Below are positions 15,400-18,387 of a stretch of 64,000 nt of DNA, in pieces. The notes beneath the pieces are model-generated. The model saw only the letters and a list, made by a program, of their open reading frames with translations, was not told the DNA's origin and ran no database searches. Position 1 is the first letter of the stretch. Each line of letters starts with the position of its first letter. Location: the NCBI RefSeq assembly GCF_057098645.1, contig NZ_CM169472.1; one strand, given 5' to 3'. The position numbers and the translations under genes are program-made.

Positions 15400-17232
15400 T
15401 TACGCAGGCAGTAGATTGTGTGCTGCCAGATCGGCGGCAATATCTTCCAGCCCCAGACGCTGCAATGTTTCGCGGGTTGGGCAACCAAGCTGTGGGTCCC
15501 AGCCCATTTCTTTGTAGAACATCGTGAGCGAAGCATGCATATCGTCACGATCCATTTTGTCAGTACCTTCAGTAAAGACCGGGATCTGCGGATCCTTGTC
15601 GAATACCCAGGAACAGATAAGATCGTGTTCATTACGCATATCTTTGGTTTGCATCAGTTTCACCGTGTAGGCACGATGCAATGTAAAGATACGCTCTGCA
15701 GCTAAATCTAATTTTTCCTGAGTCATCTCTTCGCCAGTGATCGCTTTGAAGAATTTGGCTTCAAGCGCCAGATCGCCCCGATAATTACGGCTTTTCAGCG
15801 GCGAAACGGTCATTGGCCAGACCCAGTTGCACAGGGTGACGGCGTTATGCAAACAGACCCGCAACAGCGACCACTTAGCATATTTAATTTTTGCGTCATT
15901 GATCGGCGTGTAGTTTTTGGTTTCATCGTAAGCATCTTCAGAACCAAAAAGCTCTTTCGCCACTTCACGCTGCAGTTTCAATGGCAAACCCGAACCAATA
16001 AAATTGATATGGGTATGCGTCATGCAGTCACGGTTGAACATACAGTTAACAATGGAACCGACCTGCGCTGACGCTTCATTGGCATGGTGAAGCGGATAGC
16101 CAAACGGCGACCAGAGTTTATTTTTCGCGTAGCCCCAGTACTCTTCACCCAAATTCCAGCGTTCTGCGATGGCATATGAACCATCAGCCAGGTGGCTCAG
16201 CTCACCCACACGATGCGCCAGACGGTAGTAAAAATCTTTAATGAAGTTAACGTCACCCGCTTCCAGTTGATCCCAGCGAATTTCCGCATACTCTTCAGCT
16301 GGCAGAACACGCTTGAACACCCCTTTGCTGTAACAGTAGGTAAAGTCGCGATGCAGCTGCCCGTAGTTACACCATAGGCCGTAGTCATCGAACAAATTCA
16401 GACCAACAAGGTTACCAATCACACGACCATCGTCTTTATCTTCAAAATCTTTCGGCCCGTTCGGGAAGATGGTGGTATGGACAAAGTTTGCTACACAAGT
16501 GTTACCACCTGTGCTGGGCACGCCAAACTCTTTCACCCGAGGAATATTCATTTGGGTCATACAACGGATCGGGCAAGAGTGGCAGCCGCTCATTTTTACT
16601 GTGTATTTCTCTGCCGCCGGTCCTAAGTCAAAAACGGATTTATAGGTACGAAAGCCGACCGTATTCTGATTGCCTGGCGGAATTTCACCCGTTTCAATCG
16701 GACCACCTTCAGCCGCGCCCCAAAACAGCCCTTTACGTGCTGTCCAGCGTGACTTGGGATCTGAATACTCTGCCCACGATTGCGGCGTACTTGGCACGAC
16801 ATGGTTGTTATTCGCACCGATAAGTTCAGTCATCATGTAATCGTTGAGACGCTTCATCTCCTGACGATCGGCAATGTTGACCCCTTTCGTCCCTTCAACC
16901 GCAATCGCTTTCAGGTTTTTCGAACCCATTATTGCGCCAGTTCCCGCACCACCGCTGTGGTTACGGCTATTCAACATGCCAGAGAGAGGAACAAGGTTTT
17001 CCCCAGCCTGACCAATAGCCGCCACACAGGTTTCCGGACTGGTCAATCGACAAATTTCTTCCGTCGTTGCGCGCGTCCCTTTTCCCCATAAGAAATCTGC
17101 TTTTTCCAGGCTAACTTTGTCATCTTTAATCTTCAGCCATACCGGTGATTTCGCCTTCCCTTCGATAATAATGACGTCGTAGCCAGCGAATTTCATTTGC
17201 GCCGCAAAAAAGCCACCCATATGGGCATCGAC
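15400..17232 (-). pseudogene. ydhV: ydhV (oxidoreductase), 5'-truncated by IS1
   Basis: 610 codons of open frame run from the stop at 15400 up to the IS1 left end at 17232 (...VDAHMGGFFAAQMKFAGYD...); about 90 N-terminal codons expected from remembered 700-aa YdhV are absent. Confidence 0.8.
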
Positions 17233-17287
17233 GGTGATGCTGCCAACTTACTGATTTAGTGTATGATGGTGTTTTTGAGGTGCTCCA

Positions 17288-17563
17288 GTGGCTTCTGTTT
17301 CTATCAGCTGTCCCTCCTGTTCAGCTACTGACGGGGTGGTGCGTAACGGCAAAAGCACCGCCGGACATCAGCGCTATCTCTGCTCTCACTGCCGTAAAAC
17401 ATGGCAACTGCAGTTCACTTACACCGCTTCTCAACCCGGTACGCACCAGAAAATCATTGATATGGCCATGAATGGCGTTGGATGCCGGGCAACCGCCCGC
17501 ATTATGGGCGTTGGCCTCAACACGATTTTCCGCCATTTAAAAAACTCAGGCCGCAGTCGGTAA
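17288..17563 (+). CDS. insA: IS1 InsA
   Basis: 91-aa [42 protein letters not shown]... Confidence 0.95.
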
Positions 17564-17985
17564 CCTCGCGCATACAGCCGGGCAGTGACGTCATCGTCTG
17601 CGCGGAAATGGACGAACAGTGGGGATACGTCGGGGCTAAATCGCGCCAGCGCTGGCTGTTTTACGCGTATGACAGGCTCCGGAAGACGGTTGTTGCGCAC
17701 GTATTCGGTGAACGCACTATGGCGACGCTGGGGCGTCTTATGAGCCTGCTGTCACCCTTTGACGTGGTGATATGGATGACGGATGGCTGGCCGCTGTATG
17801 AATCCCGCCTGAAGGGAAAGCTGCACGTAATCAGCAAGCGATATACGCAGCGAATTGAGCGGCATAACCTGAATCTGAGGCAGCACCTGGCACGGCTGGG
17901 ACGGAAGTCGCTGTCGTTCTCAAAATCGGTGGAGCTGCATGACAAAGTCATCGGGCATTATCTGAACATAAAACACTATCAATAA
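17482..17985 (+). CDS. insB: IS1 InsB reading frame (expressed as InsAB' by -1 frameshift)
   Basis: InsB frame ...[21 protein letters not shown]...; A6C slippery motif AAAAAAC at 17539-17545. Confidence 0.9.
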
Positions 17986-18133
17986 GTTGGAGTCATTACC
18001 TACGCTGCTGACTCTGTCCCCAACACCAGATATTTTCCCTAACCCGATAGTGTATGAGAAAAGATTTAACGCCGATAAACTAATCCTTTATGGTTAGGAG
18101 AAAAAATAATGTGGTTATTCTGGGCTCTTAACA

Positions 18134-18147
18134 TTGATCATTATCAA
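18134..18147. promoter_or_regulatory. FNR box (TTGAT-N4-ATCAA), probable remnant of the ydhY operon promoter
   Basis: Perfect TTGATcattATCAA; the ydhYVWXUT operon is established as FNR-activated. Confidence 0.55.
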
Positions 18148-18387
18148 TTAAAATTACAAAGCAAGAAATTATAAGTGAACTGATATTTATTATCATTTGA
18201 AATAAATTTAACTTAAGCGACAATTATTTGTGACGGTCATTGCAGAAAATAAAAATAATATTATCGCTATAAATTAAAATACATACCGAAATTCGTATAA
18301 TTTCAGCAGTTGTTATTTAGAATGATTAACTGGACCGCAACTGAAGCAAGAATATCAGGATGAAGCTTATCGCCTCATCCTGAATGG

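Follow-up and report, generated by a model that had tools for sequence, protein, structure and literature searches.

What kind of event leaves a complete insertion sequence between two unmatched target sequences, and what does it cost the operon in which it occurred? The question is raised by the ydhYVWXUT locus in a stretch of 64,000 nucleotides (contig NZ_CM169472.1 of assembly GCF_057098645.1; the whole stretch is called the window below), in which an intact IS1 stands between a shortened ydhV and fumD (ydhZ), and the 9 bp on its two sides differ. The comparison presented here shows that IS1 replaces 984 bp, which include the entire ydhY gene and the start of ydhV, and an IS1 adjacent deletion, generated by intramolecular target-primed transposition, is the likeliest mechanism, with a probability of roughly 0.6.

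An IS1 element without a target-site duplication

The element was recognized by direct reading and by a profile match, and its parts are arranged as follows.

17233-18000, plus strand: intact IS1, 768 bp
17233-17255: left terminal inverted repeat (IRL)
17288-17563: insA
17482-17985: insB frame
17539-17545: A6C site
17978-18000: right terminal inverted repeat (IRR)

The IS1 begins with GGTGATGCTGCCAACTTACTG and finishes with GTTGGAGTCATTACC; neither end lacks a base, each cleanly adjoins unique DNA, and the two terminal inverted repeats agree at 18 of 23 positions, an imperfection expected for the family. The product of insA is an InsA protein of 91 aa, and a -1 shift at the A6C site (17539) gives an InsAB' fusion of 232 aa without an internal stop, which scores 243.8 bits against the NCBIfam equivalog of the IS1 transposase (transpos_IS1; cut-off 100). 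Furthermore, the element shares 99.1-99.9% identity with annotated IS1 copies of other genomes, occurs as a single copy in the window, and is also the sole repeat of at least 100 bp there. The first-pass annotation of the window had described exactly this 768-bp element with insA and insB, and had noticed that its 9-bp flanks do not form a direct repeat; on re-reading, these flanks are GGCATCGAC (17224-17232) and TACGCTGCT (18001-18009), without any target-site duplication. The missing 9-bp duplication speaks against a simple insertion; it is expected of a deletion derivative, and the element is still an IS1.

Extent of the deletion

The window was aligned by blastn to positions 1746000-1758000 of K-12 MG1655 (NC_000913.3), an interval referred to as L001. 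The alignment runs up to window position 17233 and L001 position 7562, and resumes at window position 18001 and L001 position 8547. Thus, a contiguous block of 984 bp (L001 7563-8546) is replaced by IS1, and the flanks are otherwise colinear with K-12. The same block is present in RM9872 (O145:H28), the nearest complete genome, and in the draft GCA_029357705.1. A survey of 5,426 complete E. coli genomes detected the 984-bp segment in 5,405 (99.6%), and in 5,387 at a coverage of at least 80%. The two junctions are the following.

17224-17233: left junction, where ydhV codon 90/91 meets IRL, with the left flank GGCATCGAC
18000-18009: right junction, where IRR meets the ydhY leader at a point 68 nt upstream of the lost ATG, with the flank TACGCTGCT

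Because the G at 17233 fits both partners, the left junction is ambiguous by 1 bp. Four consecutive pieces, given in the sense of the operon (minus strand), make up the lost DNA.

68 nt: 3' portion of the ydhY leader with its GAGG ribosome-binding site
627 nt: the whole of ydhY, 208 codons and the stop
20 nt: the spacer between ydhY and ydhV
269 nt: ydhV codons 1-89 and two bases of codon 90

What is left of ydhV is likewise delimited.

15400-17232, minus strand: ydhV remnant, codons 91-700 (610 of 700) and the stop, by profile match

The structure and the gene loss are confirmed as real. The first-pass annotation had proposed an IS1 bounded by a deletion, a ydhV lacking about 90 N-terminal codons with its frame running into the element, and the disappearance of the ydhY coding sequence; the gap abutting IS1, the remnant of codons 91-700, and the position of all 627 nt of ydhY within the deleted block bear this out, and the K-12 annotation agrees that ydhY normally lies between ydhV and ydhZ/fumD. 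The K-12 operon and the window have the gene order and the position of the box for the regulator FNR in common, whereas the window has lost ydhY, the last 68 nt of the leader, and the first 90 codons of ydhV, and carries an IS1 between the promoter and the genes.

Lineage and age of the allele

The flanks of the deletion are 99.95-99.97% identical to O145:H28 RM9872 over 58 kb, with 20 substitutions and two 1-bp indels. In RM9872 the locus is intact, and the ydhV remnant of the window differs from it at zero positions. An even closer sequence, GCA_029357705.1, matches the window at 100% identity over 9,217 bp to the left of the deletion and 2,468 bp to its right, with ydhY intact and a ydhV of 700 aa; it effectively represents the pre-deletion state. 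The exact YdhX protein of the window occurs in 63 blocks of the assembly collection, of which 24 contigs were read, and in all 24 of these, ydhY is present and ydhV is 700 aa long.

The two junctions were searched as 40-mers, CCACCCATATGGGCATCGACGGTGATGCTGCCAACTTACT and AATAAGTTGGAGTCATTACCTACGCTGCTGACTCTGTCCC. Neither junction occurs among the 5,426 complete E. coli genomes, the left-junction 40-mer has 0 matches in the Genome Taxonomy Database (GTDB) representative genomes, and the right-junction 40-mer has 0 matches in the Joint Genome Institute (JGI) metagenomes. A relative that is identical on both flanks and yet intact, together with junctions unmatched elsewhere, shows the deletion to be a recent one, confined to this strain or to a small clade. 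A Shigella origin, suspected from best full-length matches of 98.5%, was rejected: the flanks are 99.95% identical to E. coli O145:H28, and the window contains no repeat other than IS1.

Other IS1 events at the same locus

Independent IS1 deletions of this kind, with different end points, occur in three finished genomes.

L001 7436-8694: IS1 deletion in LST200A (NZ_CP110858.1)
L001 7520-8803: IS1 deletion in LR-06 (NZ_AP025546.1)
L001 7366-8874: IS1 deletion in MB10 (NZ_CP073988.1)

As in the window, the whole of ydhY and the beginning of ydhV have given way in these strains to an IS1 of the same orientation, and ydhWXUT and fumD are kept. In at least four further strains (PRO_A-1496, SWYHX138, C9, and ES7), IS1 has simply inserted into ydhV, ydhY, or the leader and is flanked by a 9-bp duplication; these insertions share with the window the element, its orientation, and the 1-kb target area, but no DNA has been lost. 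The insertion of PRO_A-1496 is located at L001 7565-7573, 3 bp from the left junction of the window, and the insertion of C9, at L001 8532-8540, is 7 bp away from the right one.

Within the 3.7-kb query, 38 genomes have an IS1 on the same strand. An IS1 hot spot is not claimed: with IS1 at 10 places in the median genome, of about 4.9 Mb, our own arithmetic predicts that about 40 of 5,426 genomes would have one in a random 3.7-kb stretch. The shared orientation of the eight mapped IS1 copies was likewise rejected as evidence, because the search joins pieces on one strand only and so leaves out copies of the opposite orientation.

Mechanism of the deletion

A single IS1, the missing duplication, and a deletion that starts exactly at the IS end together form the signature of intramolecular target-primed transposition. 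An insertion sequence left behind by this process has no direct repeats, as is typical of IS1 and Tn9 (PMC9330008, section 5.2.1). In the proposed course of events, an IS1 copy would have been situated at one of the two present junctions and would have transposed intramolecularly, in a target-primed manner, into nearby DNA of the same chromosome. In doing so it would have discarded the intervening 984 bp, from the IS end to the new target, and one IS1 would have remained, with flanks derived from two different target sites and therefore without a 9-bp duplication. The classic IS1 adjacent deletions, reportedly described by Reif and Saedler in 1975 in the gal region of E. coli K-12, resemble the window allele in that one IS1 is kept, the deletion extends from the IS end, direct repeats are missing, and the size is in the kilobase range. 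Compared with these, the mechanism would be the same, and the novelty lies in the locus and the end points alone.

Several points weigh against this reading. The final sequence fits a one-step deletion and a recombination between two insertions equally; no simple-insertion progenitor was found, with either junction in the 5,426 complete genomes, with the left 40-mer in the GTDB representative genomes, or with the right 40-mer in the JGI metagenomes; and the structure is that of the assembled sequence. On the two-step route, IS1 copies of the same orientation would have entered ydhV (target GGCATCGAC) and the ydhY leader (target TACGCTGCT) and then undergone homologous recombination, with the same functional outcome. 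Its product would be base-for-base identical to the observed structure, and the neighboring insertions of PRO_A-1496 and C9 show that both sites are usable IS1 targets. However, the junction of an adjacent deletion is also a transposition target, so the quality of the target sites does not discriminate between two steps and one. The two-step route needs two hits within 1 kb plus a recombination, in a lineage whose sampled relatives are all intact, and neither its single-insertion nor its double-insertion intermediate is present in the 5,426 complete genomes; it is the less likely explanation.

A different doubt concerns the assembly, in which two IS1 copies, or a complex IS1-bounded structure, might have been collapsed into one, so that the 984-bp loss would be unreal. 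Such a collapsed repeat would indeed look like a single copy with non-matching flanks, but the IS ends are complete and abut unique DNA cleanly, the flanks are colinear with and 100% identical to GCA_029357705.1, independent IS1 deletions of the same kind exist in the three finished genomes, and the position of IS1 inside a contiguous 64-kb stretch implies that the repeat was spanned. An artefact is thus highly improbable. A simple IS1 insertion with an atypical or absent duplication, and with no deletion, has nothing beyond the missing duplication to recommend it, and is refuted by the 984 bp that are missing exactly at the IS and are present in 5,405 of the 5,426 genomes as well as in the relative with identical flanks. 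Hence, the one-step adjacent deletion by IS1 is the reading preferred here.

Loss of the Ydh enzyme

YdhV and YdhY are the L (large, pterin) and S (small, polyferredoxin) subunits of a Class V WOR (PMC13328260). YdhV itself is a Mo-bis-MPT enzyme of the AOR/WOR family (PMC12096430, PMC13328260). The earlier description of an uncharacterized oxidoreductase system is therefore outdated with respect to the enzyme class and cofactor, and still stands with respect to the reaction and substrate.

The ydhV remnant lacks a start codon and a ribosome-binding site of its own. The frame offers its first ATG at codon 95 (17220), preceded by no obvious Shine-Dalgarno sequence, and an in-frame TAA for the ydhV frame is located six codons inside IS1. 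The remnant covers positions 94-703 of the 703-position NCBIfam equivalog PRK09849. Since the AFOR_N domain (Pfam) spans residues 7-205 of full YdhV, nearly half of this domain is removed. In the six-gene set Y-V-W-X-U-T, ydhY is missing and ydhV is truncated, and W, X, U, and T are full length. With YdhY lost, and with YdhV deprived of its start, its ribosome-binding site, and 90 N-terminal residues, the Ydh (Class V WOR) complex cannot be made. The decisive functional lesion is the loss of YdhY and of nearly half of the YdhV AFOR_N domain, and it is independent of transcription.

A split ydhV also occurs in the Logan contig ERR6099787_205 (L006 4940-5020), which is 99.98% identical to RM9872 and carries ydhV in fragments of 88 aa and 606 aa. 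It was the only match when the 606-aa open reading frame of the ydhV remnant was looked up; its lesion is unrelated, a 1-bp deletion in a T-run that splits ydhV and by coincidence gives an identical open reading frame.

The retained FNR promoter

To the right of IS1, 387 bp with a GC content of 31.8% separate the element from fumD/ydhZ, in agreement with the AT-rich DNA noticed by the first-pass annotation. The following features are assigned to this side.

18001-18098, minus strand: retained 5' ydhY leader, about 98 nt, as placed from the published -42.5
18134-18147: TTGATCATTATCAA, the FNR box belonging to the class II promoter of ydhYVWXUT and the only match to the FNR consensus in 64 kb
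18355-18383, minus strand: terminator-like hairpin directly after fumD, kept, with a 12-bp stem and a T-rich tail, from a consensus scan only
18388-18597, minus strand: fumD (ydhZ), intact, 69 aa, with 100% aa identity to K-12 and 153 bits against the FumD equivalog

The single FNR-consensus match in the window compares with 0.08 expected by chance, and K-12 has TTGATCGTTATCAA at the orthologous position. The ydhYVWXUT operon has one FNR site at -42.5, FNR occupancy in chromatin immunoprecipitation (ChIP), and FNR-dependent expression (Myers 2013, PMC3688515); the box, which the first-pass annotation had called perfect, is this documented promoter site. In K-12, the operon is FNR-activated and NarL/NarP-repressed, according to Partridge et al. 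2008 as quoted in papers that cite it. The NarL/NarP heptamer TACYYMT has zero matches in 18001-18387, and its window-wide count is at the chance level; the scan is uninformative.

When the box center at 18140.5 is placed at the published -42.5, the transcription start would lie at about 18098 on the minus strand. A -10-like CATTAT, read by eye, is located at about 18111-18106, just upstream of this predicted start. The predicted leader of K-12 is about 165 nt long; its last 68 nt are deleted in the window and about 98 nt are kept. On this placement the promoter is intact and faces the right end of IS1, where its transcripts would run antisense to insB and insA. In LST200A, LR-06, and MB10, the FNR box is deleted too, and the window allele alone of the four keeps the promoter. 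The first-pass annotation had called the promoter stranded and the genes cut off from it. IS1 does stand between the two, but with the predicted start and the kept leader the promoter would read into IS1, and the expression "cut off" leans on textbook polarity.

The neighboring fumD is annotated as frameshifted in RM9872, which has one T fewer at window position 18408; it is intact in the window and in K-12.

Expected effect on ydhWXUT

Between the promoter and ydhW, there are 98 nt of leader, 768 nt of IS1, and 1.8 kb of ydhV remnant (about 2.7 kb), without a recognizable translated gene. IS1 exerts strong Rho-mediated polarity in either orientation. With about 2.7 kb of such RNA before ydhW and Rho-dependent polarity, ydhWXUT is expected to be poorly expressed, so that a strong reduction, rather than rewiring, would be the outcome. 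A scan found no promoter-like (sigma-70) site directed out of IRL towards ydhV. The best candidate by eye is TTGGCA-17-CATATG, a poor one, with its -10 matching at 3 of 6 positions. IS1 ends are reported to contribute a -35 to fusion promoters (Prentki 1986, as listed in PMC9330008).

The predicted silencing is tempered by the following considerations: it leans on textbook IS1 polarity and Rho termination, the transcription start is taken from the published -42.5 value, and some read-through into ydhWXUT may occur. An anaerobic antisense transcript over insB and insA might make transposase expression or transposition oxygen-responsive, or might leave a residual FNR-dependent expression of YdhWXUT without its catalytic partner; either consequence is considered unlikely.

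Downstream genes

The four genes downstream of ydhV are all present on the minus strand.

12419-13231, minus strand: ydhT, full length, 270 aa, with 99.3% aa identity to K-12 over 270/270 and 490 bits against the NCBIfam YdhT equivalog
13235-14020, minus strand: ydhU (phsC-like cytochrome b subunit), full length, 261 aa, by K-12 comparison and profile
14017-14685, minus strand: ydhX (4Fe-4S protein), full length, 222 aa, with C124Y
14749-15396, minus strand: ydhW, full length, 215 aa, with 394 bits against the YdhW equivalog

YdhW, YdhX, YdhU, and YdhT have 97-99% aa identity to K-12 and no internal stops. Compared with RM9872, ydhT has zero nucleotide differences and ydhU has one synonymous difference. 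In YdhX, the substitution C124Y (window 14315) affects the first Cys of the CxxCxxCxxxCP [4Fe-4S] motif, a position that is Cys in K-12, RM9872, LST200A, LR-06, and MB10. Decay after the deletion was rejected as its explanation, since the same allele is present in 24 of the 24 contigs read, all with an intact operon. Its occurrence in relatives with an intact operon means that C124Y is older than the IS1 deletion, and the Ydh system may already have been impaired in the lineage before the deletion.

Other observations in the window

Further from the locus, ydiP (AraC-family regulator, 41847-42757, minus strand) has a T6 to T5 change at 42140-42149 relative to RM9872, which splits it at about residue 205; this 1-bp deletion may be a genuine frameshift or may be a sequencing error in the homopolymer. 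The gene ydiO (acyl-CoA dehydrogenase, 40654-41801) is frameshifted near codon 289, and RM9872 is annotated likewise, which makes this a trait of the lineage and not of the strain. The colinearity with RM9872 ends at 58691/58692 (btuC-ihfA, beside an STnc540 match), because RM9872 has a prophage there (integrase, replication endonuclease, and portal protein); the window continues in a K-12-like manner. An Rfam match to the "antisense RNA" HPnc0260 at 10226-10388 (minus strand) lies opposite two tRNA-Val genes (10107-10261) and probably merely reflects the tRNA sequence. The other Rfam matches, STnc550, RprA, rydB, Phe leader, and STnc540, are expected for the region.

Implications

The allele is new and reveals no new mechanism, since the one to which it is attributed is a textbook one; the retained FNR promoter firing into IS1 is the only slightly unusual point. 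The annotation of this strain should list ydhV among the pseudogenes, record the absence of ydhY, and treat the Ydh (Class V WOR) system as non-functional. The deletion adds one more independent IS1 knock-out of a near-core locus, whose loss is tolerated in at least some niches. Meanwhile, the strain and its intact relative with identical flanks constitute a natural near-isogenic pair, which can be used to seek a Ydh phenotype.

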